A stretch of DNA of 64,000 bases from an uncultured Erysipelotrichia bacterium. GTDB lineage: Bacteria; Bacillota_I; Bacilli_A; CAYWJS01. This document shows positions 18,966-64,000 of this stretch, one piece after another. The position numbers and the translations under genes are program-made. The notes beneath the pieces were generated by a model, which made no database searches, had not been told where the DNA came from, and saw only the letters and a program-made list of their open reading frames with translations. The DNA lies in contig CAYWJS010000001.1 in assembly GCA_964458855.1 (NCBI GenBank), forward strand, positions 170,927-234,926, written 5' to 3'. Position 1 is the first letter of the stretch; each line of letters opens with the position of its first letter.

Positions 18966-18970
18966 TTAAA

Positions 18971-47269: not shown

Positions 47270-47400
47270 CAGCCGTAGCAGCATCCGCCGATAACTCGAT
47301 CACTGCTATCCTCGTCAATCGTTTCCGATCCAGGCGCTGATTAATAAACTACCCTGACTACCCTCCTTGGTAATTTATTAACTACCGCTATTATATTATA
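47270..47400 (-). promoter_or_regulatory. GC-rich structured element in the 5' leader of 46195..47127 (candidate riboswitch or ncRNA, class unknown)
   Basis: On the minus strand there is a 13-bp helix TTAATAAATTACC/GGTAGTTTATTAA with an AAGGAGGG-containing loop. There is also an ATCG-GAAA-CGAT tetraloop hairpin, nested GCAG/CTGC and TCAGC/GCTGA pairings. GC content is visibly above that of the flanks. Confidence 0.3.
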
Positions 47401-48551: not shown

Positions 48552-49292
<741 letters not shown>

Positions 49293-49311
49293 TCTTTTGA
49301 TTTGGCGAAAA

Positions 49312-49339
49312 TTGACAAATTGTCGTTTTGTGCTACGAT
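49312..49339 (+). promoter_or_regulatory. L1 promoter (diverged copy of the locus promoter cassette)
   Basis: TTGACA-aattgtcgttttgtgc-TACGAT. It shares the TTGTCG..TT.GTGCTA core with the cassettes at 50912 and 53407. Confidence 0.5.
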
Positions 49340-49374
49340 ATTATAAGGTAATGATTATAGGAAGGGGTAGAAGT

Positions 49375-50850
49375 GTGGAATACATAGAAAAAGGACGAAT
49401 AGCACGAATTAGAAGTTTAATTGCTATGAGTGCTATAACAGCAATAATTTTGATTATTTCAACTTATGCGTGGTTTGTTGGTATGCAATCAGTTTATGTT
49501 TCCAATTTTGAAATTGATGTACAAGTGGCAGAAGGACTTTCACTTTCATTGGATGGGGAAAATTGGGATTCAAGGTTGACTTTTTCAGTGGATGATATAG
49601 AAAGATTAGGTTATGCTGGAAGTACTAATAGCAAAGGTGGTGCTGGTTTAATTCCAGTATCAACGGTAGGTGCAATGGATACTCGTGCTTCAAGAATGAT
49701 ATTGTTTGAAAAATCAAGTTTTGCTCCAACACCTGGTGGTTATCGAATAATGGCCAGCCGGGTTAAAAATTATTATGATGAAGAAGAAATTTTAGCCCCA
49801 GAACAAGATGGTTATGTAGTTTTTGATTTGTTTATTAGAAACTTATCAGGTACTGAGTACTATGTAAATAATGATCCAAGAAATGAAGAAGCAATTTATT
49901 TAACAACTGATTCAAAAGTGGTTGTTGAAACATCTGGTGGTATTCCTGATACTGGTATTGAAAACTCAGTGAGAATAGCATTTGCACAAATTGGACGTGT
50001 TAAAGCTGACACGGTCCCTTCAATAGTCGCAGGTATTACTTGTAATCCTGATCCTGCTACAGGTGAACCAACTGTTGTAGGTGCTGTAACAGGAATTTGT
50101 CGAAAAGCTCAAATTTGGGAACCAAATGATACAGAGCATAACGCAAATGCAATTAGTTATTATAAAACTTCTTGTCGAAGAAGAATTGCTGGTGGATTTG
50201 GTGCTTCGTCGTATTCAAGTGCTGAGTGTTCAGATATTGTTGGAACCGTTCCTACATTTGCAATTCACAGAGAACTTTCATTTACTGATGAAGTAGATCT
50301 TTATGATGGATATACTGATCCAGAAGATTCAGATAACTTTATATATAATGGTTTTAGCAATGGGGTTTTAGAACCATTTGATTACTTTACTGATTCAGAA
50401 AAAATATTAAAAGGAGTTGAGCGTCCAGCATTTATGACGCTTGCACCTAATAGTATTACTAAAGTAAGAGTTTATATTTATATTGAAGGTCAAGATATTG
50501 ATAATTATAACTTTGCTCAAATCGGAAAAAGAATTGCTGTTAATTTTGGATTCACGAAAGAAAGACTTACTCAAGATGATATTGAGTATGAAGGTCCTGA
50601 TTTAGCCCCGGTTATTAACTTACTCGGCGACAATCCTTTAACAGTTATAGCAGGAGAAAAATATGAGGAGCCAGGTTATAGAGCACTTGATGATTTTGAT
50701 GGGGATATAACACATTTGGTTGAAATAGATTATGGTGAGTTTAATCCAGAATCACCAAGCTTAGGTAATTACACAATAACATATACTGTTCAGGATAAAT
50801 CCGAAAATGTAACTTTGGTAACAAGACAAATATATGTAGTTTCTAATTAA
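49375..50850 (+). CDS. L1: secreted paralog, SipW-type signal anchor (..ISTYA|WF) plus conserved core plus C-terminal DUF5011 Ig-like domain
   Basis: GTG 49375 lies 7-8 nt after AGGAAGGGG. Track start 49297 would lie inside the promoter. The N-terminus aligns with L3 and L4. The C-terminus PVINLLGDNPLTV..GEKYEEPGYRALDDFDGDIT....GNYTITYTVQDKSENV is DUF5011-like. Confidence 0.8.
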   Translation: MEYIEKGRIARIRSLIAMSAITAIILIISTYAWFVGMQSVYVSNFEIDVQVAEGLSLSLDGENWDSRLTFSVDDIERLGYAGSTNSKGGAGLIPVSTVGAMDTRASRMILFEKSSFAPTPGGYRIMASRVKNYYDEEEILAPEQDGYVVFDLFIRNLSGTEYYVNNDPRNEEAIYLTTDSKVVVETSGGIPDTGIENSVRIAFAQIGRVKADTVPSIVAGITCNPDPATGEPTVVGAVTGICRKAQIWEPNDTEHNANAISYYKTSCRRRIAGGFGASSYSSAECSDIVGTVPTFAIHRELSFTDEVDLYDGYTDPEDSDNFIYNGFSNGVLEPFDYFTDSEKILKGVERPAFMTLAPNSITKVRVYIYIEGQDIDNYNFAQIGKRIAVNFGFTKERLTQDDIEYEGPDLAPVINLLGDNPLTVIAGEKYEEPGYRALDDFDGDITHLVEIDYGEFNPESPSLGNYTITYTVQDKSENVTLVTRQIYVVSN

Positions 50851-50879
50851 GAGTAATCAATAGATTACTCTTTTTTTAT
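50851..50879 (+). terminator. Terminator after L1
   Basis: AGAGTAATC-aata-GATTACTCT followed by ttttttatttt. Confidence 0.75.
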
Positions 50880-50911
50880 TTTTCGCATTTTATTGTTTAA
50901 AAATTAAATTA

Positions 50912-50956
50912 TATTGACCATTTTGTCGATTCGTGCTAATATATAAGTGTATAATT
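50912..50956 (+). repeat. 45-nt promoter cassette, copy 1 (repeated at 53407..53451 with 1 mismatch)
   Basis: tATTGACCATTTTGTCGATTCGTGCTAATATATA(a/g)GTGTATAATT read in both places. Confidence 0.85.
50914..50942 (+). promoter_or_regulatory. L2-L3 promoter (extended -10)
   Basis: TTGACC, 17-nt spacer ending in TGc, then TAATAT. Confidence 0.6.
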
Positions 50957-50975
50957 AAAGAGGTAGAGATAAGAA

Positions 50976-51674
50976 ATGAGTGACAAAATTTTTTTAAAAG
51001 CTAGCAGAGTAAAACAACGAAAAAAAATAATGAAAATTGCCAGGTTAATAGCGCTTATTCTTGCTTTGCTCTTGCTTATCTCTTACATAGTTATTCGTAT
51101 TATTTATGGAAGTGGAACTTTTACGATTCGGTTGGATCGAAAGTTATATTATGATAGAGGTCTTATAATTTACGATGATCCAAACTATATGGTTTTTAGA
51201 TCCGAATTACATGCAGAACCAGTTGATTTTTTAGATAATATTTCTTATAAATGGTTACCAACCGATCTTCATGAACATGAAGGTGGTTCACATAATGGGG
51301 ATAATTATATAGCATATACTTTTTATTTAACCAATACGGGAGAATATCCAGCAAATTATTGGTCAGAAATTACTATTGATTATGTGATGAAAGAAGTTGA
51401 TGAGGCAGTAAGGGTAAGGGTCTATAAGAATGGAGAATATAAAACTTATGCGAAAATTGGAAAAAACGGAAGACCTGAACCAGAAACTGTTCCTTTTGTA
51501 TCAGATAGAATAATTACAACAGAGTTTGTTGAAAGGTTTCAACCGGAGGAAACAAATAAATACACTATAGTTATATGGTTAGAGGGAACTGACCCAGAAT
51601 GTACAGATAACATTTTGGGTGGAGAAATAAAACTGTCAATGAGTTTTAATGCAGAAATATTAGATGAAAATTAA
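50976..51674 (+). CDS. L2: membrane-anchored mini-paralog of the L1/L3/L4 core (no YAWF site, no DUF5011)
   Basis: AGAGGTAGAG RBS and one TM. It shares YIAYTFYLTNTGEY and TIVIWLEGTDPECTDNILGGEIKLSMSF with the FDLFIKNxSGxEYY and VYIWIEGQDIDNY...VxFGF motifs of the larger paralogs. Confidence 0.75.
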   Translation: MSDKIFLKASRVKQRKKIMKIARLIALILALLLLISYIVIRIIYGSGTFTIRLDRKLYYDRGLIIYDDPNYMVFRSELHAEPVDFLDNISYKWLPTDLHEHEGGSHNGDNYIAYTFYLTNTGEYPANYWSEITIDYVMKEVDEAVRVRVYKNGEYKTYAKIGKNGRPEPETVPFVSDRIITTEFVERFQPEETNKYTIVIWLEGTDPECTDNILGGEIKLSMSFNAEILDEN

Positions 51675-51683
51675 AGGAGAGAT

Positions 51684-53324
51684 ATGGTTATGTCAAAATT
51701 GAAAAACAGGCGACTAAGTCAAATTAGAAATTTAATTGCAATGAGTGCTTTAAGTGCTTTAGTTTTAATTGTTTCAGCTTATGCATGGTTTATTGGTATG
51801 CAATCTGTTCATGTAACAAACTTTGAAATTGAAATTGCAGTTGCAGAAGAATTATTTCTTTCATTAGATGGTGAAAATTGGACAACGAATTTAAGTATTA
51901 GTAGAGAAGATGTTGAAGGAACAGAACAAGGGAAACCTTACCCAAATCATACAAATAGTTGGGGAGGTGCTGGTCTTATCCCAATGTCATCAGTTGGGGA
52001 AATAGATTTACAAGCATCGCGATTAAAGTTGTATGAAAAGGCAAGTTTTACAGCAAGTCCAGGTGGTTGGAGAATACTAACAAGTCGTGTTCAAAATTAT
52101 TATGATGAAGAAGAAGTTTTAGCCTCAGAACAAGATGGATATGTTGCATTTGATCTATTTATTAAAAACATGTCAGGTAGTGAATACTATACAGAAAGCG
52201 ATGTAAGAAATGAAGAGGCAATTTATTTAACAATTGATTCAGAAGTAACAGTTGCTTCAGCTGGAGTTGCTGGAGCAGGTATTGAAAATTCAGTGAGAGT
52301 AGCATTTGCGCAAATTGGACGTGTTAAAGCTGATTCAACTGATTATGCAACAATTCAAGGTATAACTTGCAATCTTGATGAAGAAGGAAACCCTTCTTAT
52401 TCAGAAAGTAATAAAGTAACAGGAATTTGCCGTAAGGCTGTAATTTGGGAACCAAACGATACTAGTCATACAGCGGAAGCGATAAGTTGGTATAATTTAA
52501 CATGTCGCCCAAGAATAGGCTTTGATGTAACTCTTGATACCTCTTTTAATAAAGAAGGAAAATGTAATCCAGTAGTTGATGGCTTAGCGTATCCAACATA
52601 TGTTGTAAGAGATGTAATTAATGTAGAAGATAATGCTGATGCTTATGATGGGGAAGCTTATAATACTTGGGATGTTGCTAAAACAACTGTACAAGTACCA
52701 GATCCAGAAAACCCTGGAGAGACTATAACTAAAAATATAACACCAAAATTAGAAGAGACTAAATATTTCACGGATACAGATAAGTTAAAACGCGGAACTG
52801 AGCGTCCAGCATTTATGACGCTTGCACCAAATAGTATTACAAAGGTGAGAGTATATATTTGGATTGAAGGTCAAGATATTGATAACTATGACTTTGCATC
52901 AATTGGAAAAAGAATTTCTGTTAAATTTGGATTTACAAAACAACAACTTACTGAAGGAGACATTGGTTATGAAGGACCAAATCCAAATGAAGGATATGGA
53001 CCAGGTGCAGAAGATAAGACTCCACCAATTATTGTTTTAAATCCTGGCTCAGAAGGTAATGATGATATGATGATTCCACTTGGTAGTGAATTTAATGATC
53101 CTGGTGTAAAAGAAGCATATGATGTTACAGGTCATGATGCGGAAGGAAATCCTATTAAACTAAACTATAATGTAGAAGGCGATGACAGCGACGTTAAAAT
53201 ATCAGGAGTTGTAAATACTAACTATCCAGGAACATACCGAATTACTTATGAAGTAAGGGATGCAAAAGGAAACTTAGCTAGAATCATGAGAAGAGTAACA
53301 GTATATGACCCAAATCAAGAGTAA
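51684..53324 (+). CDS. L3: secreted paralog (..VSAYA|WF), core plus DUF5011
   Basis: AAGGAGAG RBS. Strong similarity to L1 and L4 at both ends, with a variable Cys-bounded middle region. Confidence 0.85.
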   Translation: MVMSKLKNRRLSQIRNLIAMSALSALVLIVSAYAWFIGMQSVHVTNFEIEIAVAEELFLSLDGENWTTNLSISREDVEGTEQGKPYPNHTNSWGGAGLIPMSSVGEIDLQASRLKLYEKASFTASPGGWRILTSRVQNYYDEEEVLASEQDGYVAFDLFIKNMSGSEYYTESDVRNEEAIYLTIDSEVTVASAGVAGAGIENSVRVAFAQIGRVKADSTDYATIQGITCNLDEEGNPSYSESNKVTGICRKAVIWEPNDTSHTAEAISWYNLTCRPRIGFDVTLDTSFNKEGKCNPVVDGLAYPTYVVRDVINVEDNADAYDGEAYNTWDVAKTTVQVPDPENPGETITKNITPKLEETKYFTDTDKLKRGTERPAFMTLAPNSITKVRVYIWIEGQDIDNYDFASIGKRISVKFGFTKQQLTEGDIGYEGPNPNEGYGPGAEDKTPPIIVLNPGSEGNDDMMIPLGSEFNDPGVKEAYDVTGHDAEGNPIKLNYNVEGDDSDVKISGVVNTNYPGTYRITYEVRDAKGNLARIMRRVTVYDPNQE

Positions 53325-53334
53325 TAAATTTTAA

Positions 53335-53368
53335 AAGGAGCAATTAGTTGATTGCTCCTTTTTTATTT
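53335..53368 (+). terminator. Terminator after L3
   Basis: AAGGAGCAAT-tagttg-ATTGCTCCTT followed by ttttatttt. Confidence 0.8.
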
Positions 53369-53406
53369 TATAAAAATCAACAATATTAGATTAAACAATA
53401 AAATTT

Positions 53407-53451
53407 TATTGACCATTTTGTCGATTCGTGCTAATATATAGGTGTATAATT
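53407..53451 (+). repeat. 45-nt promoter cassette, copy 2
   Basis: Identical to 50912..50956 except for one base (g at 53441 vs a at 50946). Confidence 0.85.
53409..53437 (+). promoter_or_regulatory. L4 promoter (extended -10)
   Basis: TTGACC, 17-nt spacer ending in TGc, then TAATAT. Confidence 0.6.
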
Positions 53452-53515
53452 GTTATGCTATTTATACATTTAAAATTAGTTAAAATTGTAAGAAGGGTAA
53501 TAAAGGAGAGTGCAT

Positions 53516-55063
53516 ATGCAAGGTAGAAAAAAAAGACTAGATAGTCGAGTTAGAAATTTAATTGGGATTTGTGCTTTAAGTGTTATTGTTTTAATTGTTT
53601 CATCTTATGCGTGGTTTATTGGTATGCAATCTGTTCATGTATCAAGTTTTGAAATTGAAATTGCTGCCACAAAAGCACTAGAATTGTCCTTAGATGGGAA
53701 AACATGGTCAAATACTGTAACGATTAATGAAGCAAAATTACCAGAGATTGATGCTCAGTATCCAGATAATACCAATAGTTGGGGTGGATCTGGATTAAAA
53801 CCAATCTCAACAGTTGGAAAGATAGATTTGGATGCTTCTCGTCTAATATTATATGAAAAAGCAAGTTTTTCACCAGTACCTGGTGGATTTAAAATTCTAG
53901 CGAGTCGAGTTAATAATCATTATAATGAAGAAGAAACAACTTTATCTCCAGAACAAAATGGTTATGTAGTGTTTGATTTATTTATTAAGAATCATTCAGG
54001 AAATGAATATTACAAAGAAGTAGATTATAGAAATGAAGAAGATATTTATTTAACAATTGATTCAACTGTAGAAGTAGCAACTGCAGGAGGAATTGCTGAT
54101 ACAGGTATTGAAAACTCAATAAGAGTAGCGTTTGCGCAAATTGGACGTGTTATTGGGACAACAAAAGCAGAGGATGCTGCTGACATAATTCAAGGAATTA
54201 CTTGCGCAAATACTAATGAAGTTTCAGGAATTTGCCATACTCGTGATGCTGTAATTTGGGAACCAAATGATAAGGCACATAATAGAAACGCAGTTAATTT
54301 TTATGAAACGACTTGTTTGTTAAGAGATAATCAAGGTACAGAACCAAATGATGTTTCTTCACCAGATTCTTATACTACATCTTGCCCAGAATTAGTATAC
54401 GAAGCAGAAGATCCAGATAATATACCTTATTACCCAACATATTCAATTGCTGATGTAATTGGTGCAGAAGATAATGTTAATGCTTATGATGGGGAAGAGT
54501 ATAATGGATATACAAAATCTGTTATTAGTGAAAGTAATCCAAATGGAAAATTGATGAAATTTGATTACTTTACTGACACAGAAAAAAATTATACAGGAAC
54601 TGATCGCCCATCATTTATGAGACTAGCACCAAATAGTATTACTAAAGTTAGAATTTATGTTTATATAGAAGGCCAAGATATTGATTGCTATAGTTGGTCA
54701 CAAATTGGAAAGAGAATTTCTGTTCGCTTTGGGTTCACAAAAGAAAGACTTACTGAAGAAGATATTGAATATGAAGGACCAAATACAGATGAACATGATA
54801 ATACACCACCAGTTATTACTTTAAATGGTTCTAACCTAATTGAGCTTCCATTAGGAACGCCATATGTTGAATACGGAGCAACTGCACAAGATGATTATAC
54901 TCAATATATAGATCCAAATGATATTGAAATAGAATACCCAGACGGTTTTGATCCAGAAAATCTATCTGTTGGTGAATATGAAATAACTTATAAAGCTAGA
55001 GATAGAAAAGGAAATGTAGGCGAAGCAACAAGAATTGTTAGGGTATATGACCCAGAGGAATAA
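53516..55063 (+). CDS. L4: secreted paralog (..VSSYA|WF), core plus DUF5011
   Basis: ATG 53516 lies 7 nt after AAGGAG (track start GTG 53510). The C-terminus PPVITLNGSNLIELPLGTPYVEYGATAQDDYT....GEYEITYKARDRKGNV is DUF5011-like. Confidence 0.85.
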   Translation: MQGRKKRLDSRVRNLIGICALSVIVLIVSSYAWFIGMQSVHVSSFEIEIAATKALELSLDGKTWSNTVTINEAKLPEIDAQYPDNTNSWGGSGLKPISTVGKIDLDASRLILYEKASFSPVPGGFKILASRVNNHYNEEETTLSPEQNGYVVFDLFIKNHSGNEYYKEVDYRNEEDIYLTIDSTVEVATAGGIADTGIENSIRVAFAQIGRVIGTTKAEDAADIIQGITCANTNEVSGICHTRDAVIWEPNDKAHNRNAVNFYETTCLLRDNQGTEPNDVSSPDSYTTSCPELVYEAEDPDNIPYYPTYSIADVIGAEDNVNAYDGEEYNGYTKSVISESNPNGKLMKFDYFTDTEKNYTGTDRPSFMRLAPNSITKVRIYVYIEGQDIDCYSWSQIGKRISVRFGFTKERLTEEDIEYEGPNTDEHDNTPPVITLNGSNLIELPLGTPYVEYGATAQDDYTQYIDPNDIEIEYPDGFDPENLSVGEYEITYKARDRKGNVGEATRIVRVYDPEE

Positions 55064-55130
55064 GAATAAAATAAGAAGTTTAAATAATACTGACTAGAGG
55101 TTATGTTAGTTATTATTTAAGTTTAATATA

Positions 55131-55164
55131 AAGAGTAATCAACAGTTGGTTACTCTTTATTTTT
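55131..55164 (+). terminator. Terminator/attenuator hairpin between L4 and L5
   Basis: AAGAGTAATC-aacagtt-GGTTACTCTT followed by tatttt. It resembles the L1 terminator and ends only about 6 nt before the L5 RBS. Confidence 0.6.
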
Positions 55165-55179
55165 AAAAGAGGTGACTTG

Positions 55180-56283
55180 ATGCCTAAAAAAAATAAAATA
55201 AAAATAAATAAAACTATTAAAGATAAAAAAGCAATAAAGAAAAAAAATAAAAAAGGAAAGAGACTTGCTTTAATGTTAATAGTTACCTTTTTTGTCGGAA
55301 TATTATTAATAATTTCTACATATGCATGGTTTTCGGTATCGCTAAATGTTAAAGTTAAGAGGTTTGATGTTGTTGTATCTAGTGATAGTGGTTTGTTTAT
55401 TTCATTAGATGGTATTAATTTTTCTGATTCAATAGAATTATCAGTAAATAGTGTTATAACAAATTTAAAAAATAGATACCCAACTCATACAAATCAGTGG
55501 GCTTTAGCAGGGCTTTGGCCTGTATCTTCTAATGGAATAAACCATAGTAACCAAGATAAATTTCAAGTTTTTGCTGCATCCTTCGCTCGTAAATCAGCAC
55601 ACACAAAAGAAAGATATATGTTTACAAGACTTCTTAGTGAAAATCAATCTGGTGCAGCAAGCCCTTTTATAGCATTTGACATATTCTTAAAAAATGTTAC
55701 TGGCTCACCATTTAGTGATAATTTATATTTAGATGAAGGAACTTCCGTTACTTTTTCAGATGATACAGAACCTGAGATTATCGAAACTATGGAAGATGTA
55801 TTAAATTCAATTAGATTTGGCTTTTTAAAAATTGGTAGTGTTCCTTTAAATTCAGATATTAAAACAATTCAGGGAATAAAGTGTAATAATCAATGTGAAT
55901 TTGTTATTTATGAACCAAATAGTGCAAAACACTCAAATGAAACAATTGAACGGATAAAAGAGCGATATGATTATGATTTAGTAGATGGTGAGTATTTACC
56001 AACTTACGGTGTTATAAAAGCTGGTTCGAGATTAGAATTTTCAAGGATTATTCCAACAGAAGATGGTTATAAAATTGATTATGATCCTGAGTATTTTGCT
56101 CTTCAAAGAACAATTACAAGCTTTGAAAATAGTATTTTTAAAATTCCTAATGCAATTACAAAAATGAGAATATATGTTTGGATTGAAGGACAAGATTTTG
56201 ACAGTTTGGAAACTAATTCAGATGGTGCATCTGTAAATTTAGTAATTAATTTTGTAAAAGATTTAGCTAGTTATGAACAATAG
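55180..56283 (+). CDS. L5: shorter secreted paralog (..ISTYA|WF), core only, no DUF5011
   Basis: Shares YAWF, LFISLDGINF, FIAFDIFLKNVTGS, SIRFGFLKIG, GIKCNNQCEFVIYEPN and ITKMRIYVWIEGQDFDS with L1, L3 and L4. Confidence 0.8.
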   Translation: MPKKNKIKINKTIKDKKAIKKKNKKGKRLALMLIVTFFVGILLIISTYAWFSVSLNVKVKRFDVVVSSDSGLFISLDGINFSDSIELSVNSVITNLKNRYPTHTNQWALAGLWPVSSNGINHSNQDKFQVFAASFARKSAHTKERYMFTRLLSENQSGAASPFIAFDIFLKNVTGSPFSDNLYLDEGTSVTFSDDTEPEIIETMEDVLNSIRFGFLKIGSVPLNSDIKTIQGIKCNNQCEFVIYEPNSAKHSNETIERIKERYDYDLVDGEYLPTYGVIKAGSRLEFSRIIPTEDGYKIDYDPEYFALQRTITSFENSIFKIPNAITKMRIYVWIEGQDFDSLETNSDGASVNLVINFVKDLASYEQ

Positions 56284-56294
56284 AAGGTGGTAGA

Positions 56295-56447
56295 ATGAAA
56301 AAAGAAGAAAGTAAAATAACTTTTGATTTGGCAAAACTTAGTCTTAATGAACTTATTAAAGTTTATGAAGATATTAATAGTTTTTTACAATATTTAAATG
56401 AAGTAAAAATTCTTCCAAAAGAAGAGGAGGAAAAGAAAAATGAGTAA
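56295..56447 (+). CDS. L6: 50-aa cytoplasmic protein (not in the ORF track)
   Basis: ATG lies 5 nt after AAGGTGG. It translates to MKKEESKITFDLAKLSLNELIKVYEDINSFLQYLNEVKILPKEEEEKKNE. Its stop overlaps the L7 start. Confidence 0.4.
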   Translation: MKKEESKITFDLAKLSLNELIKVYEDINSFLQYLNEVKILPKEEEEKKNE

Positions 56448-58062
56448 GTTTATTGATTTTATCAATGAAGATATAAAAGCAAAAAGAATTCTTTTTTCCA
56501 CTCTTCCAACAAAAACAAAGCGTGATATTAAAAATTTTAATGAAAAAAATGAGGAAACAAAAGAAAAGTACCTTGAATATAAAAGTAAACTAGTTAAATA
56601 TATTATTGCAAAAGCAAAAACTTTTGAGATTAAAGCACCTTCTAAAAATTTAGAAAAAATTCAAAATAAAATTAACACTTTAGAACACCTAAAATTTATT
56701 TTGAATCCCCTTAATACTTATTATGAAAAACTTGGTTTTGATAAATTGATTTATGAAATGAGTAATTATTATGAAGCTGATTTTAAATCAGTAAATAAAG
56801 TTATTGATGAATTTTTAAGTAAGTTTGAATTAGCAGGAATAAAACTTACTGCAAATGACTTTGATTATACTTGTTATGTTAAAGAATATATGACAATATT
56901 TTTAGAGGTTAGAGCAAACAACTTTGTTGATACAAAAAAACTTTCTGAAGTATTTGAAAATATTTATTGGACTAATCCAGAAATTATTCAACATATTGAA
57001 TTGAATTTTCGAAAATTGATTAGGGACAACAAAAAGAAATTAATAAATTATATAAAAAGAGTAAAAAAAGAAGTTATGCTTGAAAATAATATAAAAGATT
57101 ATAAGGATTGTTTAGAAAAATTAAAAAAAGCTTATGAGGAATTTAATGAAGTTAATCGCGAAGGTATTGCTGATATAATTGAATTTGCTAAAATTGGAAT
57201 TATTGATATTAATCATTATTTTAAAGATAGTAAAGTTCGAAATTCAACTTACAGTAGTTTAGCAATTGATTCTTTAAATTTAAGTGATTCAAAAACGATG
57301 ACAAGATTTTATGAAAATCTTAAAAAGTTAAAGCATAATGTTCAAGAATATAGTAATTATTTAAAATTTTTACCACTATTTACAGATTTTAAAAAGGAAT
57401 ATGAAAAGCAAATTCCAAGTGATAACAAAGTAGATAATAAAAAGTTAAAAGATTTAGAAGCAGAAATTATAAGAAAAGAAACAAAATTAAAAAGGATTAA
57501 CAAGAAAATATTTAAGGGTGATAATGTATTTTGGGATAAACAAAGTGCAAAAAAGATTAAAAAATTAAAAATTGAATCAGTAAAGCAAGCAAAAGAATTA
57601 TATGATTTGTACAAACAACATGATGAAGAATTTTTCCATACAAGAGTACTTTCAATTTTAGTTCCTTCCCTTACAATATCTGAATTATTGCATTTATACT
57701 ATAGTTTTGATTTCTTTAAGAAGAAAGCTATAAAGAAAGCTTTTGACTTAGTAGAAAATGAAGAAATTGAAAGATATAGTAATGAATTTGATCTATTTGC
57801 AAGAAATCCTTTAAATATAGTTACAAAAGATGTTTTAGTTTTTGAAGAGGCTAATATTGCGAGAGTAATTATGAATAAGTATCGCTTGTATAATATCAAT
57901 TTAACAGAAGAAGATTTAGAAGCTGAAAATTTAAAAGGATTATTAGATCGTATAGATCTATTGCTAAGAATTAATGAAATAGAAAAAAATCCGAGAACAG
58001 TCGAAGAAATTTGGTTTATGGTACAAGCTGAAAAAATTAAAGCATTAGAAAACTTAAAATAA
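56440..58062 (+). CDS. L7: 540-aa K/E-rich all-helical cytoplasmic protein, unknown function
   Basis: GAGGAGG RBS. No TM or signal sequence. No family recognised. Confidence 0.7.
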   Translation: MSKFIDFINEDIKAKRILFSTLPTKTKRDIKNFNEKNEETKEKYLEYKSKLVKYIIAKAKTFEIKAPSKNLEKIQNKINTLEHLKFILNPLNTYYEKLGFDKLIYEMSNYYEADFKSVNKVIDEFLSKFELAGIKLTANDFDYTCYVKEYMTIFLEVRANNFVDTKKLSEVFENIYWTNPEIIQHIELNFRKLIRDNKKKLINYIKRVKKEVMLENNIKDYKDCLEKLKKAYEEFNEVNREGIADIIEFAKIGIIDINHYFKDSKVRNSTYSSLAIDSLNLSDSKTMTRFYENLKKLKHNVQEYSNYLKFLPLFTDFKKEYEKQIPSDNKVDNKKLKDLEAEIIRKETKLKRINKKIFKGDNVFWDKQSAKKIKKLKIESVKQAKELYDLYKQHDEEFFHTRVLSILVPSLTISELLHLYYSFDFFKKKAIKKAFDLVENEEIERYSNEFDLFARNPLNIVTKDVLVFEEANIARVIMNKYRLYNINLTEEDLEAENLKGLLDRIDLLLRINEIEKNPRTVEEIWFMVQAEKIKALENLK

Positions 58063-58087
58063 AACTTCTCTTTTGAGAAGTTTTTTG
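58061..58087 (+). terminator. Terminator after L7
   Basis: AAAACTTCTC-tttt-GAGAAGTTTT followed by ttg. Confidence 0.75.
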
Positions 58088-58090
58088 TTT

Positions 58091-58120
58091 TTGTAGTTTT
58101 AATAGTAATTATGTTATAAT
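58091..58120 (+). promoter_or_regulatory. Putative L8-L11 promoter
   Basis: TTGTAG, 18-nt spacer ending in TGt, then TATAAT. Confidence 0.35.
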
Positions 58121-58155
58121 AAAATTATGAAATTTCAGGGCAAAGAGGGATAATT

Positions 58156-60033
58156 ATGTTAAAAAACAATAAATTATCACTATTAAAAATTATTAGTTTA
58201 ATTATAATATTAGGCTTTATTTTAGTAGTGCCCTTAGTTTCAAAAGAATATAGTAATTTAAAAGAGACAGGATTTAAAAATGATACTTTAAAAGTATTAA
58301 ATTTAACAAATTCAATAGTTACTATTAGTATTGATGATAAAACTTATACAACTTTTAAAGAAGAATTGGATTATGTATATATTGATCGTCCAAGAGAAAT
58401 TAGTATTCAAACAAGTGACGAAATTATAATTAAATATTATGTATCAAAAGAAGTTTTAACAATTGAAGAGTTAGATTTATTAGATGAAGAAGAGTGGGTG
58501 CCGTATGTATCTGAGTTTCTAATTGATGAAATAGGAACTTACATTTTTTATGTTAAAGCAATAAATAGTGAAGAAGAGGTAAGTTATTATAACACGGATT
58601 ATATTGTTTATGATGGATATATAAATCAAAGTTTAAAAATTGGAAGAGGTTCTAATTACGAAGGTTTTTTACCATATATTACTGGTAAGTCTACAGTAAC
58701 TTTAAACTTTAAGTATTTAAGTACTAATGCTGAGATAAGCGGAAATCATAATCTTATGAGCAATATTTTATTTCCGAAAGGAACAAAAATAACATTAATT
58801 GATAATGTTAAACAAAAAGTTTATACATATGAAATAACTACTGATGAAGATGTTTACAATTACCATGAAAGTTGTGCTTCGAGTGATTTAGGGTGCGAAA
58901 AAATTGCAACTTATTCATTTTCATTATTTAACGAAGTGGGTGCAATAGATAAGTCATTTGTGGAAAGTTCATATTTTGAAAATGGTGAAGTTTATGAAAA
59001 TTTTACTATTGTTTTAGATTTTGCGAAAACAAATATAACAAGTAATTTTTTAGATGTTAAGGTCTTTTTAGAATTAAAAGATTTATCCGGAAATAGTGTT
59101 CGTCCAACTTTATATGAGACAATTAATAAATTTCAAATATATGCGCGCGTTAATGATAAAGATACTGGTGCAAATTTAGACTTAACTACTGATTATTCAG
59201 GTACACCAATTAAATATAATACAGATTCAACAACTGAAATTACTTTAACTAGCAAAATAAATTATAAATTTTTGGGTGAAATTCCAATAATTGATACAAC
59301 ATATGAAAATAAAAATATTGGTTTTGCAATTAAATTGGTAGATGATAGTGGAAAGATTGTAAATAGAAATAATTTAAAAAATATTTCGTTTTTAGTAGAT
59401 GGCAAAGCTTATTATCCAGAAGAAGATCATATTGTAAGAATTAATTTGGAAAAAGGAATTGCTGATATAAGTAAAAAACTTACAATTATTACACACAAAA
59501 CTCAAAGTTATTTAGAACCTGGAACCTATTATTTAAAAATTAATGCTTATGTATCTAAAGGAAAATATTTTTCTAGTTTAAGCAGTAGTGAAATTAGTAT
59601 TCCTGTTAATGTTGTTCAAGATAAAACAAAAATACCATATGCTTTTAATGTTGTTATTAATAATGAGGATTATGTAATTGCGAAAAGCGAAGAAGAAAGA
59701 GAAATAATGTTTAATATTTTACAAACTAGTTCTTTTGAAAACCCTAATATTCGTATTGCTTTATATGAAAGGCAAGAAAAAGAAGAAGGACCAAGTTATG
59801 AAATTGTTGATTTAAATAATTTTATAACTGATGAACTAGAAGAAGCAGAAGAAAATGTTTATTATGCAGTGGAAAAAGCAGTTAATTATATAAGTCCGGA
59901 TTATTTATATAATGAATTTAAGCTTAATTTAATACCTGCAAACTTTAATTATACTAGTTATAAATATGTATTTATGTTGTATGATGGTGAAGAAAAAATC
60001 GCTACAATTGAAAAATATTTTCTAGTTAAGTAG
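58156..60033 (+). CDS. L8: 625-aa N-terminally anchored, beta-rich extracellular protein
   Basis: AGAGGG RBS. Signal anchor LLKIISLIIILGFILVVPLV, with the remainder predicted outside the cell. No family recognised. Confidence 0.75.
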   Translation: MLKNNKLSLLKIISLIIILGFILVVPLVSKEYSNLKETGFKNDTLKVLNLTNSIVTISIDDKTYTTFKEELDYVYIDRPREISIQTSDEIIIKYYVSKEVLTIEELDLLDEEEWVPYVSEFLIDEIGTYIFYVKAINSEEEVSYYNTDYIVYDGYINQSLKIGRGSNYEGFLPYITGKSTVTLNFKYLSTNAEISGNHNLMSNILFPKGTKITLIDNVKQKVYTYEITTDEDVYNYHESCASSDLGCEKIATYSFSLFNEVGAIDKSFVESSYFENGEVYENFTIVLDFAKTNITSNFLDVKVFLELKDLSGNSVRPTLYETINKFQIYARVNDKDTGANLDLTTDYSGTPIKYNTDSTTEITLTSKINYKFLGEIPIIDTTYENKNIGFAIKLVDDSGKIVNRNNLKNISFLVDGKAYYPEEDHIVRINLEKGIADISKKLTIITHKTQSYLEPGTYYLKINAYVSKGKYFSSLSSSEISIPVNVVQDKTKIPYAFNVVINNEDYVIAKSEEEREIMFNILQTSSFENPNIRIALYERQEKEEGPSYEIVDLNNFITDELEEAEENVYYAVEKAVNYISPDYLYNEFKLNLIPANFNYTSYKYVFMLYDGEEKIATIEKYFLVK

Positions 60034-60041
60034 GTGTTAAA

Positions 60042-60602
60042 ATGATAAATAAAATAAATAAAAAAGTTTTAATTATTGCTGGTTTAGTAATTATACTTGG
60101 ACTTTTTTCTGGCGTAACATATTCAATTTTTCATTCACGAGTAAAGATGAAATCTCATGATCAAAAAATTGCAAAATTTATATTTAATGTAGAGCATTTA
60201 GATGATTTAGAAATTCCTTTAGTGGATATCATACCAGGTGAGGAACAAGAATATTTGTTTTCAGTTACTAATAATTCAGAGGAAAAAATTAGTGATGTTA
60301 CACTAGAGTATCAAATAACAATAAAAACATATCATTTTCTTCCTTTAATAATTGAACTTTTTAAGATAATTGAAGAAGAAACAGAAGAATTAATCTTAAC
60401 ATGTGATGATAGTTTTGAACGTTCTACACAAAATGAATTAGTATGTGAAGTTCCTCTTCAAGAAATGGTTCATTCAGAGGAAGTGGTTGATAATTATAAA
60501 TTGAGAATAGAGTTTCCAGAAGATAAAAATGAAGAAGTTTACGCTAGTTTAGTTGATTTTATTAATTTAGAAATAAGAAGCTGGCAAAAAATTAGTAAAT
60601 AA
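60042..60602 (+). CDS. L9: small secreted protein with SipW-type site (..GVTYS|IF), TasA/camelysin-like strand motif
   Basis: AGGTG RBS. IIPGEEQEYLFSVTNNSEEKISDVTLEYQITI resembles the PGD...F.V.N.G strand of the TasA family. Confidence 0.7.
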   Translation: MINKINKKVLIIAGLVIILGLFSGVTYSIFHSRVKMKSHDQKIAKFIFNVEHLDDLEIPLVDIIPGEEQEYLFSVTNNSEEKISDVTLEYQITIKTYHFLPLIIELFKIIEEETEELILTCDDSFERSTQNELVCEVPLQEMVHSEEVVDNYKLRIEFPEDKNEEVYASLVDFINLEIRSWQKISK

Positions 60603-60616
60603 CAGAGGTGTTATAA

Positions 60617-61510
60617 ATGAAAAAGAGGAGTTTAATTTTAATAATATTACTAATAATGAGTTCATTGCTACTTATTTATGGGATATCTTCAGCAAGGTAT
60701 ATTTCTACTTCCGTATGGGATTATTATTTAAGGGCGAAGGAATTTTATTTTACAAGTGATTTTTTAGATGTAACACCTGTTAAAACGGTTAATACATTAT
60801 GGGATGGTAAAAAAGTAACCTTTAACATTAAAAATAATTTAAATGTAATTGCAATAACTGATTATGATATTGAATATATAGTAACTTGTACAATAAAAGG
60901 AGATATGGCATCACATGCTCAGTGTAAATTAAATGGGACAACTGAAAACACTTTTGAAAGTATTTTAGAAAATTCAAAACATTGTGTAAACAGAAAAGAA
61001 ACAGGTGTTGATGTAAGTGAATTTACTGAAATAGAATGTATTGAAGCAGGTTATGATTGGGAAAATAAAATCTCTATGGAAGAGCTGTATTTTGAAATTA
61101 TTCCAAATAATCCAAACGATGAACTGAATAAAATAGAGGTAAATATTACAGTTGAAAGTACTAAACCTTATAAGAAAACTTTAACAGGGGATTTTGTATT
61201 AGAAAAACCCAACTTAAAAGAAGAAGTTAAAATGGTTCTTAAAAGTTATGATGATTACGAGGAGTTAATTGTAACAAATTCATATAATCAAAGAAAGTGC
61301 ATAAAAATATCTTGGGATTCTAGCAAATTAAGGCTTGATGCGAGTCCAAATAATTTTAGTTCTTATCTCGCGGATACAAATGGTTTTATCAAAGAAATTA
61401 AATTCAATATAAATGCAAAGAGTAACTTAAACTTAATGTTTTACCGTGTGTATTTTAATTTAGAAGTTGGTATTGATGATTTTATACTAACTGAAAGTAG
61501 CGGTTGTTAA
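60617..61510 (+). CDS. L10: secreted protein with a signal peptide ending ..YGISSA|RY
   Basis: GAGGTG RBS and one N-terminal hydrophobic helix. Contains the KKVTFNIKNNLN strand motif. Confidence 0.7.
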   Translation: MKKRSLILIILLIMSSLLLIYGISSARYISTSVWDYYLRAKEFYFTSDFLDVTPVKTVNTLWDGKKVTFNIKNNLNVIAITDYDIEYIVTCTIKGDMASHAQCKLNGTTENTFESILENSKHCVNRKETGVDVSEFTEIECIEAGYDWENKISMEELYFEIIPNNPNDELNKIEVNITVESTKPYKKTLTGDFVLEKPNLKEEVKMVLKSYDDYEELIVTNSYNQRKCIKISWDSSKLRLDASPNNFSSYLADTNGFIKEIKFNINAKSNLNLMFYRVYFNLEVGIDDFILTESSGC

Positions 61511-61581
61511 CATTATTCCTTTATTAAGAAATCTTATTGCTATGTCAAATTTTGTATGTTATTATGTAAGTAGGTGGTAAA

Positions 61582-62133
61582 ATGAAAGTATTGGGGATTA
61601 TTAAGAAAGTTGTAAAGGTTATTATTTTAACTGTTTTTTTTGTTTATGCTATATTTATGAGTATATTATTGTTAAATATAAATAAATATGGTGTTACACA
61701 AATTGATAATATTTCCTTTGTTATTTTAAGAGAAGAGCTATCCTCAGATAAGTATAAAAAAGGCGATTTATTATTAATTGAATCAAAGAAAATTAATAGA
61801 ATTAACGAAGGCGATGAAATATTTGTTTATGTTGTAGATAGCACAGGAATCCCAAGTATTGATTTAGGTATTATAGCGGGGAAAAATATAGAGAAAAATT
61901 ATATTACTTTTAAAAATGGTTCTGCTTATGATATGCAGTTTGTAATTGGAGAGACAGTAAAAGTTTATAATGGTATCGGATTGTATCTTTCATTTTTACA
62001 ATCAACGTGGGGATTTTTATTTACTGTTTTAATTCCTGTTTTTCTAATCTTTATTTACCAAGTTTATGCTCTAATTATAGAAATTAAATTTGGTGATGAA
62101 GAAGAAATGAAAGAAAAGATAGAAGAAATATAA
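61582..62133 (+). CDS. L11: SipW-like (S26B-like) two-TM protein lacking any histidine; probable pseudo-peptidase
   Basis: Same N-TM / beta core / C-TM layout as L12, with aligned blocks KKGDLLLIES~NPGDLVIVKL and ITFKNGSAYD~YVTKGDANNAYD. GSM is replaced and there is no His in 183 aa. Confidence 0.6.
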   Translation: MKVLGIIKKVVKVIILTVFFVYAIFMSILLLNINKYGVTQIDNISFVILREELSSDKYKKGDLLLIESKKINRINEGDEIFVYVVDSTGIPSIDLGIIAGKNIEKNYITFKNGSAYDMQFVIGETVKVYNGIGLYLSFLQSTWGFLFTVLIPVFLIFIYQVYALIIEIKFGDEEEMKEKIEEI

Positions 62134-62157
62134 AATAAGGTAAAATTAAGATAAAAA

Positions 62158-62192
62158 AGCCACATAATTTAGTTAATTATGTGCTTTTTTTA
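62158..62192 (+). terminator. Terminator after L11
   Basis: CACATAATT-tagtt-AATTATGTG then c and ttttttt. Confidence 0.65.
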
Positions 62193-62216
62193 TTTTGTAA
62201 TAAATACTTTGATAAC

Positions 62217-62245
62217 ATTGTAAAATGCCATTAGGTATGGTAATA
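62217..62245 (+). promoter_or_regulatory. Putative L12 promoter
   Basis: TTGTAA, 17-nt spacer ending in TGg, then TAATAT. Confidence 0.35.
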
Positions 62246-62287
62246 TTTTATATAGATTAACCCTTTTTGCGAAGTAGGAATGATAGT

Positions 62288-64000
62288 ATGAAGTCACAGA
62301 TAAGTTTGTTAGAAAGATTTGTTAATTTTGTTTTAAATATATTAATTTTTATTTTTGGCGTAATTATTCTAATTTTGGTTTATGCCAATTTTCAAACAAA
62401 AATTCTTGGTAATAATTATAATGACTTTTTTGGTTATTCTTTCTTTGAAGTACAAACAGGAAGTATGGCGGATACTATCAATCCAGGAGACTTAGTAATA
62501 GTAAAACTTACTGATAATATAAAGTTAAATGATGTTGTAACTTTTAGACTTGGAAGCGACTATATTACTCATCGGGTTATGCAAATACTTCCAGATGGAA
62601 GTTATGTAACTAAAGGGGATGCAAATAATGCTTATGATGAACCAGTAAATAAAAACCAAATTATTGGTAAAGTAGTAAAAATTATTCCTGGTGTTGGAAT
62701 CATAAGAAAAACAATTCTTGAACCAAGCGTTATAATTACGATTTTAATTACAATTTGGTTATTTACTTTAGCGCTTAAAGATGAAAAAGAAGGAAAAGCA
62801 TCAGAAATTAAAAAAGAAAGAAAATATGTTTCATGGGATACAATTTGGGAAAAAACAAGTGCCTTTTTTGTCTATTTAGGAAATGGTATAGTATTTCTTA
62901 CTAAAAGAATTCTTGCTTTCCTTATAAAAGTAAAAGAGATTATTATAAAATTTATTGTAAAGATTAGGGAAGTAATTAAATTCTTATACTTAAAATTAAA
63001 AGAAGCATTGAGACTTCTTGGAGAAAAAATAGTTATTCTTTATTCGAAAATTAAAGATGAACTAATTCAGTTATTTAAGAAACTTTCAAAATTATTTATT
63101 AAACTAAAAGAATTTATAAAGAAAAAAGCAAAATTATTATGGCAAATTTTAAAAGTGTGGACAGATAAATTTATTAAGAAAATTTCTGCTTTCTTAGTTA
63201 TAGCAAAAGAAACATTAAAAAAGGTATTTAAGACTTTAATTTTAAAACTAAAAGTAGGATTTAAAGTATTTTTTGAATTCTTAAAAAAGATTTTTAAGAA
63301 GGTAAGTGATGCGATGGTTTTAGTTTTTAATAATGTTCGCAAAAAAGTAAAAAAAATAGTTGAAGATTTAAAAAATAAATTTAAAAAAGAAGAAGTGATT
63401 ACTACTAGTGATGAAAAAAAAGAAGAGGTAATAGGTGAAACTTTAGACGAAGAACTAACAGAAAGCATAAAACCTGAAGAAACCATTGAGTTAGATACGA
63501 AGATAACAATTGATTCGATTGAGATTGAAAAAACATACTTAGAAATTGCTGAAAATGAGTTAAAGAAGAGTCAAAAAGAGAAAGAAAAAGAAAAAAAGAA
63601 AAAGGTAGTTAAACCTAAACCAAAGAAAAAAGAACAAAAACCAAAAAGTGAGGATTTAACTGAACTAGAATTAAAAATTTTAAAGAAAAATAAGAAAGCA
63701 AGTGTTATAGAAGCTTTTGAATTAATAAAAGAAGAAGAATTAACAAAAATAATGAAAATAATACTTAGAAGAGACAAAACTTTTATTAAGATGTCAACGG
63801 TGGAAAAGAAGTTTTTAAAGACATATATTGATGCAAGATATTATAATTTTCATGTTTTTGAAGCAGTTTATAGTAGTAATAATTATATTACCAAAATAAA
63901 AAGAACATTAAAAAAACTTGCTTCTAAACTAGTTGAAGATTATAAAGGAAGTAATCCAAAATATGGTGATATTGTAAATAAATATTTAAAACTTTTTGTC
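62288..64000 (+). CDS. sipW: L12: archaeal/ER-type signal peptidase I (SipW-like, S26B) fused to a >400-aa Lys-rich amphipathic extension; 3' end outside window
   Basis: This ORF is not in the track because it has no stop within the window; I read it codon by codon from ATG 62288. It has an N-terminal TM, VQTGSMADTINPGDLVIV (Ser codon 62462-62464), ITHRV (His codon 62570-62572), TKGDANNAYDEP and a second TM. The frame then stays open to nt 64000. Confidence 0.8.
   Translation, partial: MKSQISLLERFVNFVLNILIFIFGVIILILVYANFQTKILGNNYNDFFGYSFFEVQTGSMADTINPGDLVIVKLTDNIKLNDVVTFRLGSDYITHRVMQILPDGSYVTKGDANNAYDEPVNKNQIIGKVVKIIPGVGIIRKTILEPSVIITILITIWLFTLALKDEKEGKASEIKKERKYVSWDTIWEKTSAFFVYLGNGIVFLTKRILAFLIKVKEIIIKFIVKIREVIKFLYLKLKEALRLLGEKIVILYSKIKDELIQLFKKLSKLFIKLKEFIKKKAKLLWQILKVWTDKFIKKISAFLVIAKETLKKVFKTLILKLKVGFKVFFEFLKKIFKKVSDAMVLVFNNVRKKVKKIVEDLKNKFKKEEVITTSDEKKEEVIGETLDEELTESIKPEETIELDTKITIDSIEIEKTYLEIAENELKKSQKEKEKEKKKKVVKPKPKKKEQKPKSEDLTELELKILKKNKKASVIEAFELIKEEELTKIMKIILRRDKTFIKMSTVEKKFLKTYIDARYYNFHVFEAVYSSNNYITKIKRTLKKLASKLVEDYKGSNPKYGDIVNKYLKLFV

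Follow-up and report, generated by a model that had tools for sequence, protein, structure and literature searches.

What does an uncultured Erysipelotrichia bacterium (GTDB lineage Bacteria; Bacillota_I; Bacilli_A; CAYWJS01) build with the long run of secretion-related genes that follows its decayed groESL? The question is raised by a stretch of 64,000 nucleotides, hereafter called the window (GenBank assembly GCA_964458855.1, contig CAYWJS010000001.1, positions 170,927 to 234,926 of the forward strand), which carries twelve co-oriented genes, L1 to L12, on the plus strand from position 49375 to its end, as had been listed in an initial annotation made from the sequence alone. That annotation proposed a surface-fibre system in which a SipW-type signal peptidase processes TasA-like substrates. 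The answer slightly favoured here is a SipW-processed, multi-subunit surface fibre or matrix that would be coupled to a McrBC-like guanosine triphosphatase (GTPase).

The window covers the first two-thirds of the cluster, and the locus continues past the window end. The near-identical Logan contig L007 (16 differences in 10,491 overlapping bases) extends downstream and, together with seven related loci, gives a whole cluster of about 21 kb (~20.8 kb) and about 17 genes. The count of twelve genes therefore has to be corrected, as L13, L14 and a second peptidase, L15, are located beyond the window. The additional products are L13 (507 aa), L14 (380 aa), L15 (193 aa), L16 (410 aa, with the signal ending LTLA↓WF, where the arrow marks the putative cleavage site) and L17 (258 aa, encoded on the opposite strand, with the signal ending TTYS↓RY). 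The initial statement that the locus has no ATPase holds for the window, because the window ends inside L12, and fails for the locus, as the McrB-type L13 starts just past this end.

The first line of evidence is the signal endings. In L1, L3, L4, L5, L9, and L10, a basic stretch and one hydrophobic segment precede endings that are exactly those initially reported (Table 1). When the 68 window open reading frames (ORFs) of at least 80 aa were scanned for a hydrophobic stretch followed by [ST]-x-[ASG]↓x-aromatic, five locus genes were matched; L3 was not caught because of its Ala at -3, and the sole match outside the locus was a borderline antisense ORF. As a sequence pattern, small↓x-aromatic sites are conserved in L1-L5, L9, L10, L16, and L17 and in their orthologues. 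The mature parts of the exported proteins are acidic, and each protein has a single N-terminal hydrophobic segment. L2 had been taken for a membrane-anchored member, but it may be cleaved rather than anchored, given that its orthologues keep G-x-G↓x-F, in the context G-x-G↓x-F(T/S)(I/V)xLD. The central proposal of the initial annotation, a SipW-type peptidase encoded together with proteins whose signals end in small(-1)↓x-aromatic(+2), is thus supported. Its statement on sortases also stands: LPXTG is absent from all 17 products, and no sortase family was found in profile scans of the locus proteins. Nor does the locus show the features of type IV pilus or Com systems, as the hydrophobic segment precedes the conserved site instead of following it, the peptidases are of the S26B type and not A24, and the only nucleoside triphosphatase (NTPase) is McrB-like.

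The second line is the peptidases themselves. L12 and L15 score 70.6 and 77.3 bits against TIGR02228 (cut-off 51.85). The S26B signatures initially read in L12 are present, and the catalytic Ser (GSM), His (THR), and Asp (KGDAN) are conserved in four orthologues, while L15 keeps the Ser, the His, and the second Asp and has lost the Asp of the GDAN box (KG[I/L]AN). With the SipW equivalog model NF046067 (cut-off 190), L12 and L15 only reach 52 and 58 bits, far below the cut-off, and they are therefore considered as enzymes of the same type that are not orthologues of B. subtilis SipW. Based on the conserved residues, both are predicted to be active S26B-type peptidases dedicated to the locus, and L15 and L16 look like a cognate peptidase-substrate pair. 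L11, found in every related locus, is homologous to L15 (hhalign 95.4%, E 2e-8). In five of five orthologues Ile or Val occupies the place of the catalytic His, the GDAN box is missing through a deletion, and the Ser position is variable; owing to this loss of catalytic residues, L11 is predicted to be a catalytically dead pseudo-peptidase. L12 is more than a peptidase: residues 1 to ~170 form the SipW-type signal peptidase I, followed by a transmembrane segment and a cytoplasmic tail of ~650 aa, made of a Lys-rich amphipathic, repeat-like region (62850-63400, residues ~190-370) and a conserved C-terminal domain of ~330 aa. Two minus-strand ORFs facing L12 are antisense artefacts of this Lys-rich tail (Table 1). 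An assignment of the C-terminal domain as an EAL-like cyclic di-GMP domain, from the motif GYKFAL...IYIADYIFV, was rejected, as a profile of four orthologues gave nothing relevant in the PDB or Pfam.

The GTPase component is encoded by L13 and L14. L13 has a strong transmembrane segment (residues 62-80), a Leu/Glu-rich, heptad-like stretch (~90-125), and then an AAA+ domain. Its only PDB match is E. coli McrB (6hz4_A, E 0.0053), with which the Walker A, Walker B, and N..D motifs align; the Walker B pairing is DEMNIARVEYYFAEM in L13 versus DEINRANLSKVFGEV in McrB (DEMNIAR...FAEM versus DEINRAN...FGEV). The motif GTINNDDS, invariant in four orthologues, can be read as NxD + D or as NxxD. The AAA+ core of L13 also matches the PADLOC model PDC-M26A (E 3.8e-39); the PADLOC models gave no match for L3, L7, L8, L12, L14, or L16. 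L14 contains DUF2357 (PF09823, the N-terminal domain of McrC) with an E value of 1.6e-11 (44.4 bits, cut-off 23.3); no nuclease family was matched, and no PD-(D/E)xK motif was found in an alignment of three orthologues. In their survey of McrBC systems, Bell et al. 2024 (eLife, PMC11090510) name, in one sentence, a class called CoCoPALM and defer its description to a later paper; the term occurs in no other paper of the searchable literature, and those supplements of Bell et al. that are available as text are silent on it. By its predicted products, the cluster (L12-L15) fits this named and undescribed class, because it combines a McrB-like GTPase and a McrC-N protein with adjoining signal-peptidase genes.

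A plainer explanation would be an expanded, otherwise ordinary, chaperone-free TasA/SipW matrix operon, next to which the McrB-like and DUF2357 genes would form an unrelated defence system, the cytoplasmic proteins taking no part in assembly. The B. subtilis tapA-sipW-tasA and C. perfringens sipW-bsaABC operons indeed work without any NTPase, L13 matches a PADLOC model of phage-defence candidates, and the CoCoNuTs, relatives of L13, are predicted to be restriction-like (Bell et al. 2024). Nevertheless, in all loci examined L13 and L14 are flanked by two peptidase genes, L12 on one side and L15 on the other, and neighbouring genes overlap or are only a few bases apart; this L12-L15 block is constant whereas the genes around the cluster vary among genomes. 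L13, moreover, has a membrane anchor and exceeds all other genes of the cluster in conservation, and L14 lacks the nuclease domain. An unrelated neighbour is, on this evidence, quite improbable.

The conservation of the cluster was followed by scanning a genome collection with an L7 alignment, which yielded three loci; synteny was then extended via the contigs encoding the homologues. The order from L5 to L16 recurs in loci of different metagenome-assembled genomes (MAGs; loci L001, L004, L006, and L008-L012, three-digit numbers denoting contigs or loci and not genes), with L17 next in some of them. From L12 to L16, the genes overlap or are separated by a few bases in L006-L012. As the genes after L16/L17 vary among genomes, the 3' boundary is placed there. 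One syntenic locus lies in a closed genome of 1.49 Mb, of which the cluster represents ~1.4%; with such a share, the system is likely central to attachment or aggregation. L13 is 66-70% identical in syntenic loci and 68-77% across the best 120 clusters, and all 8000 of its scored candidates are significant. Identities of the other genes of the locus are mostly within 42-57%; those of L8, L10, and L12 go down to 26-36% in some loci. The 90%-cluster mates of the window proteins are labelled as Tenericutes or Mycoplasmatota bacterium MAG, and the locus proteins are annotated in these clusters only as "hypothetical", "DUF5011", or "DUF2357". Just upstream of the locus in one related Bacilli MAG lies a gene for a serine recombinase, and one assembly has an IS-like (insertion sequence) element between L1-like paralogues (L001 7124-8539, L002 11829-15567). 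In L008, a gene for a HerA-like ATPase (DUF87/HerA_C; 18699-20210, minus strand) directly follows L16 on the 3' side; as it is absent from the other loci, it is probably unrelated.

These contexts also bear on the idea of an envelope-linked conflict system, in which a McrBC-derived GTPase would sense or respond to infection or stress and govern the release of secreted proteins for masking receptors, walling off cells, or acting on competitors. The NxD clade of McrB mostly comprises predicted defence systems (Bell et al. 2024), the PADLOC candidate model is matched by L13, and one relative has a recombinase and an IS element beside or within the locus. On the other hand, profile and PADLOC scans of the locus revealed neither a nuclease nor a toxin or immunity-like gene, and the chromosomal contexts differ, with no consistent mobile-element flanks. 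The uniformity of L13 across at least 120 clusters points to a housekeeping-like role more than to an arms race, and a conflict system appears very doubtful. As for a chance assemblage, or an annotation artefact of AT-rich, low-complexity ORFs, the low G+C content of the region (23-33%) and the existence of spurious antisense ORFs, for example, at 63067-63486, could suggest it, but orthologues of every gene, 26-77% identical, stand in the same order in at least seven independent loci, homologues abound (2020 for L3, 962 clusters for L9, and the whole set of scored candidates for L13), and the AlphaFold models are confident. This idea is refuted and retains practically no probability.

The preferred reading, a processed fibre or matrix coupled to a GTPase, next depends on what is exported. 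L1, L3, L4, and L5 are paralogues: the identity of L3 is 55-56% with L1 and with L4 and 31% with L5, and the family of L1 to L4 aligns with L5 at 100% probability (hhalign). L5 is present as a single copy per locus in relatives (51-54% identity), and L1-like paralogues number from 2 to 5 across genomes. The body of L2 only has the C-terminal strands (IWLEGTD...IKLSMSF) in common with L1-L5 (E 7.9e-4). Accordingly, the motifs FDLFIKN.SG and IWIEGQD, initially attributed to all five proteins, are present in L1, L3, and L4, diverged in L5, and reduced to the C-terminal one in L2. The expected DUF5011 domain was found by the profile PF16403 in L1 and L4 (Table 1). Searches with L3 returned 2020 matches, of which the best 120 are 45-57% identical and mostly full-length, plus one near-identical (98%). 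An AlphaFold2 model of L3, built on a 53-sequence alignment, has a pLDDT (predicted local distance difference test) of 85.9 and a predicted template modelling score (pTM) of 0.83, and consists of an N-terminal helix (2-40), a mostly-beta core (47-418), and an immunoglobulin (Ig) domain (449-541). As a Foldseek search with full-length L3 only matched the C-terminal Ig domain, it was discarded and the core was re-modelled alone (residues 35-432; pLDDT 85.4, pTM 0.87). The weak top PDB matches of this core are generic beta-jelly-rolls, and a sequence profile of the L1-L5 core only matched the Ig domain in the PDB. The core of L1-L4 also has four invariant or near-invariant Cys (C229, C249, C274, and C294, in L3 numbering) and invariant acidic/Asn clusters, EPND..H and EGQD.D, which could be disulfides or metal sites. 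Being large, confidently modelled, and devoid of a Pfam family or solved relative, this family is a clear structural target.

A second group of exported proteins is built around L9, whose 123 close relatives have no Pfam annotation. Weak matches to PF12389 (camelysin/TasA, Peptidase_M73) were obtained for 18 of the 41 close family members scanned, with a best E value of 9.3e-5. A profile search in 1.84 billion representatives gave 962 clusters at E <= 1e-3, and an alignment of 75 distant members, named A7, was made. Compared by hhalign with the TasA sequence, which was checked residue by residue against 8aur_A, the L9 family reaches 55-65% probability (E 6e-5 to 1e-4), and A7 64.6% (E 6.3e-5). 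With greedy extension, the terminal I.I.I.S.Q strand of the group aligns with FSFEATQ of TasA, the N- and C-terminal motifs being collinear. Among the 75 distant members, PF12389 is matched by three and the TapA model TIGR04087 by four. Against A7, L10 scores 95.5% (E 1.4e-8), its N-terminal half being the L9-like part, L17 96.3% (E 1.5e-9), and L16 92-94% over 162-165 columns. These scores make L9, L10, L16, and L17 one family, which by its profiles would be remotely, and non-conclusively, related to TasA/TapA. L2 is weakly linked both ways, at 48% probability to the L1-4 profile (C-terminal strands) and 24.5% to A7. The L16 profile had no match in the PDB. The C-terminus of L10 is ...GC in four of five orthologues (SSGC, DDGC, TSGC, and EIGC, including L004, L006, and L008).

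Directly after the putative cleavage site, the segment WF.GM..V.V..F(D/E)(I/V) is near-invariant in 53 homologues of the L1-L5 family; WF.GM is conserved at 90% or more, yet its pLDDT in the monomer model stays under 50. The mature part of L16, a protein with no other relation to L1-L5, starts with the same WF.GM-type pattern, and comparison of the L1-L5 core with the L9 superfamily gives 5-28% probability, covering only the signal and first strand. A segment that is conserved, unstructured in the monomer, and also present in L16 is what would be expected of a shared donor strand or of an element recognized by the peptidase or the assembly machinery.

Several results weigh against a GTPase-coupled fibre. 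The fibre itself is a proposal from sequence. The L1-L5 core shows no detectable relationship to any polymerising protein by hhalign, Pfam, or Foldseek: its probability against TasA is 0.1% (hhalign), none of the 53 family members touches a non-Ig Pfam family, PF12389 included, even at E 0.1, the best Foldseek hit of the L3 core in the PDB has an E value of 0.075 and a probability of 0.02, with TasA (8aur/5of1) absent, and the viral folds of BFVD gave no match (best E 0.031). The initial annotation was thus right in stating that the subunit core belongs to no described family, and the structural comparison with TasA that it suggested came out negative; its description of the substrates as TasA-like stands, remotely, for L9 and L10, and not for the L1-L5 core. 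Even for L9, the PF12389 scores remain below the curated cut-off of 22.5 (15.3 bits for L9, 18.9 for the L006 orthologue). The cleavage site is ambiguous, since VS↓TYAWF and TYA↓WF both fit the rule. For the cytoplasmic part, the CoCoPALM GTPase is defined as fused to an FtsB-like transmembrane and coiled-coil domain, and no homology of the L13 N-terminus to FtsB/DivIC was detected in the PDB (noise only) or Pfam, and the ungapped phmmer alignment cannot separate the NxD of CoCoPALM from NxxD in GTINNDDS. Finally, the relatives of McrB are mostly defence proteins, and a defence role of L13/L14 is conceivable.

Part of this evidence would suit a system without any polymer, in which each exported protein acts by itself as a surface or released adhesin or envelope protein that binds through Ig-like DUF5011 domains and is either released by SipW-type cleavage or kept by an uncleaved signal-anchor. 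DUF5011/Ig domains are commonplace in adhesins and in surface proteins that bind glycans (PDB matches), the fold search with the core matched no pilin and no TasA, a paralogue number varying from two to five among genomes is common in adhesin families, and the N-terminal extension of L8 is variable and adhesin-like. Such proteins would, however, leave the near-invariant WF.GM..V.V hard to explain, with its lack of structure in the monomer and its recurrence in L16. The co-occurrence of TasA/TapA-like proteins, the fixed gene order, and the single-copy minor parts (L2, L5, L9, L10, and L16), which resemble those of pilus operons, also argue against it, and this alternative is judged unlikely.

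In the GTPase-coupled fibre as it is proposed here, Sec would export about ten proteins (L1-L5, L9, L10, L16, and L17, and L8 in some genomes), each being held in the membrane by its N-terminal signal peptide until L12 and L15 cut after the small residue that precedes x-aromatic (...YA, ...YS, ...SA), with L11, the inactive paralogue, probably acting as a non-catalytic partner. The released proteins would build a cell-surface fibre or matrix, of which the abundant L1/L3/L4, having the new beta-rich core and, for most of them, a DUF5011 Ig domain, would be the bulk subunits. Minor subunits, or subunits that initiate or anchor the structure, would be the single-copy L2, L5, L9, L10, L16, and L17, with L8 as a variable adhesin-like component. 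Polymerisation might proceed by donation of the conserved WF.GM..V.V..F.(I/V) segment. Assembly would be linked through the membrane with a module in the cytoplasm, comprising an L13 hexamer with L14, the tail of L12, and L6/L7, which would gate or power it. The most specific form of this proposal, a restriction-type motor recruited for fibre biogenesis, in which L13 with its McrC-N partner, the L12 tail, and L6/L7 drive or gate a donor-strand polymer of the L1-L5 fold that TasA/TapA-like proteins prime or anchor, is put forward as a tentative possibility only.

Among the remaining genes, L6 has no hydrophobic segment and is conserved, with 44-60 aa in relatives. L7 has no transmembrane segment either and is single-copy, with 45-57% identity in relatives. 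No known relative was found for L6 and L7, the latter having no match in Pfam or, by profile search, in the PDB. L8 combines a conserved C-terminal part of ~480 aa with a variable N-terminus, its orthologues ranging from 491 to 1232 aa; the long ones have an extra N-terminal domain and SipW-like sites, PTFA↓RF or PSFA↓RY, which are absent from the 625-aa protein of the window.

The features of the locus and its surroundings are listed in Table 1.

Table 1. Positions of the locus genes, control signals, and neighbouring features (window coordinates unless a contig is named).
Feature	Positions	Strand	Description
310-aa ORF	46195-47127	-	Asn/Lys-rich; no Pfam match; not glmS
glmS ribozyme	47202-47349	-	full-length; RF00234, 72.8 bits
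groES	48552-48809	+	intact; Cpn10, E 3e-21
groEL remnant	48949-49260	+	103 aa, C-terminal; Cpn60 profile positions 394-482 of 490
Terminator-like hairpin	49274-49296	+	closes the groES/groEL-remnant unit; 5' boundary of the locus
Promoter-like site	49312-49339	+	TTGACA-16-TACGAT, TG-extended; upstream of L1; consensus match only
Ribosome-binding site	49360-49367	+	GGAAGGGG; 7 nt 5' of the L1 GTG; consensus match only
L1	49375-50850	+	491 aa; signal STYA↓WF, undescribed beta-rich core, C-terminal DUF5011 Ig domain (PF16403, E 2.4e-16)
Terminator-like hairpin	50849-50872		after L1
L2	50976-51674	+	232 aa; one N-terminal hydrophobic segment, short body
L3	51684-53324	+	546 aa; signal SAYA↓WF, core ~35-432, DUF5011 Ig domain 449-541
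Terminator-like hairpin	53333-53362		after L3
L4	53510-55063	+	517 aa; signal SSYA↓WF, core and DUF5011 Ig domain (PF16403, E 6.4e-11)
L5	55177-56283	+	368 aa; signal STYA↓WF, diverged core, without Ig domain
L6	56295-56447	+	50 aa; overlaps the start of L7
L7	56440-58062	+	540 aa; Lys/Glu-rich helical protein
Terminator-like hairpin	58061-58084		after L7
L8	58156-60033	+	625 aa; N-terminal hydrophobic segment
L9	60042-60602	+	186 aa; signal VTYS↓IF, PGE...F.V.N motif, C-terminal I.I.S.Q strand
L10	60617-61510	+	297 aa; signal ISSA↓RY
L11	61582-62133	+	183 aa; paralogue of the SipW-type peptidase with two transmembrane segments
L12	62288-64000, open at window end	+	571 aa seen; 827 aa in L007
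Antisense ORFs	63067-63486, 63571-63777	-	artefacts of the L12 Lys-rich tail
L8 orthologues	L006 11790-15488; L008 6809-9967; L009 6454-9987		

Terminator-like hairpins follow the groEL remnant, L1, L3, and L7 (12 observed versus 3.4 expected), and four to five transcription units therefore fit, close to the five or so initially estimated. L1 is a monocistronic unit, and the hairpins behind L1 and L3 are a hint on stoichiometry. The start of L1 was moved from the TTG at 49297 to the GTG at 49375, because of the end of the upstream hairpin, the promoter-like site, and the ribosome-binding site; the N-terminus obtained in this way agrees with the homologues. In the L4 of L007, one change (55061-55069 of the window versus L007 1651-1659) abolishes the first stop and adds two residues. 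No Rfam family was found between 47.4 and 64 kb of the window, which leaves the locus without a recognised riboswitch or other regulatory RNA. Elsewhere in the window, Rfam matches a glmS ribozyme, an L10 leader, and two tRNAs. The ORF on the 3' side of the ribozyme, on the same strand, does not encode GlmS (Table 1); behind its ribozyme, glmS has apparently been lost or has given way to another gene. An intact groES beside a remnant groEL fits a reduced genome. Genetic code 4 (UGA = Trp) was ruled out, as long housekeeping ORFs are intact under table 11.

If the GTPase takes part in assembly, Gram-positive bacteria would have, in addition to sortase pili, type IV pili, and chaperone-free TasA, a fourth way of making a pilus or matrix, and a McrBC-type motor would for the first time have a task that does not involve nucleic acids. 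Finding such a motor within a SipW/TasA-like fibre locus is surprising, though it had already been flagged, and the copy in the window does not stand out in what is a very large and uniform clade. The system is common in uncultured, small-genome Bacilli/Mycoplasmatota of digesters and guts; its source habitats include anaerobic digester samples such as the GX690 MAG series and SRR31933951, and an L3 homologue is found in a MAG labelled Thomasclavelia.

Compared with known systems, the closest in logic of processing is the B. subtilis tapA-sipW-tasA operon. Both rely on a dedicated SipW-type (archaeal/ER-type) signal peptidase and have neither sortase nor LPXTG, and the small(-1)↓x-aromatic(+2) site is found in TasA (GTWA↓AF) as in the locus (TYA↓WF, TYS↓IF, SSA↓RY). 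According to PMC10269814, the P2' position of TasA is a Phe, which makes it a poor substrate of E. coli LepB, and SipW is the enzyme that cuts it. The motifs L..L.PG....F.V.N and terminal h.h.h.(S/A).Q of TasA/TapA are present in L9, L10, L16, and L17, and TasA fibres polymerise through donor-strand exchange (PMC9674648). The B. subtilis operon, however, has three genes versus ~17 here, whereas the locus has two predicted active peptidases and a dead one, presumed bulk subunits (L1-L5, ~400-aa core) that are not detectably TasA-like, and a large additional cytoplasmic module with an AAA+ GTPase.

In C. perfringens, the sipW-bsaA-bsaB-bsaC operon similarly combines sipW with several TasA-superfamily proteins and a large accessory protein, as stated in PMC11580942 and in Obana et al. 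2020 as cited there. BsaA forms membrane-associated oligomers through strand exchange and isopeptide locking (PMC11580942), and in the model of that paper the oligomers form at the membrane before signal-peptide cleavage, which offers a template for a possible assembly of L1-L5. A BsaA-like N-E-K isopeptide triad was rejected for L1-L5, as the N-terminal strand has no conserved Asn. Unlike this cluster, BsaC secretion uses type IV pilus genes and not a McrB-like GTPase; the mention of McrB in the BsaA paper only concerns an E. coli strain genotype. Archaeal bundling pili (AbpA; PMC9245690) and cannulae (bioRxiv 10.1101/2024.12.30.630787) are also made of Sec-exported, beta-rich subunits, which there form chaperone-free donor-strand polymers. 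Some of these filaments depend on calcium, and EGQD.D/EPND of L1-L5 could conceivably be metal sites. No sequence or fold link between these filaments and L1-L5 was found, and the abstracts of these papers report no McrBC-like module with them.

E. coli McrBC is the counterpart of the cytoplasmic part: the AAA+ core of L13 resembles McrB, and L14 has DUF2357, the McrC domain that activates McrB. In L13, however, a membrane anchor replaces the DNA-binding domain, L14 is devoid of the PD-(D/E)xK nuclease, and the neighbours are secretion and processing genes instead of restriction-modification genes. These are the traits shared with CoCoPALM, for which L13 would be the McrB-like GTPase with an N-terminal transmembrane and coiled-coil-type extension, and L14 the McrC homologue cut down to DUF2357, without nuclease. 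Signal-peptidase-family genes adjoin them, L12 directly 5' and L15 directly 3' of L13-L14 (L006-L012), in Bacillota-type genomes. Bell et al. give nothing on substrates, and the follow-up promised when the class was named (2023-24) is not in the searchable literature. As far as this literature shows, the L1-L5 family, the L9-like relatives of TasA/TapA, the dead L11, the L12 tail, and L6/L7 are first described here, and the locus thereby gives CoCoPALM a concrete parts list, comprising substrates, a dead peptidase, and a tail domain.

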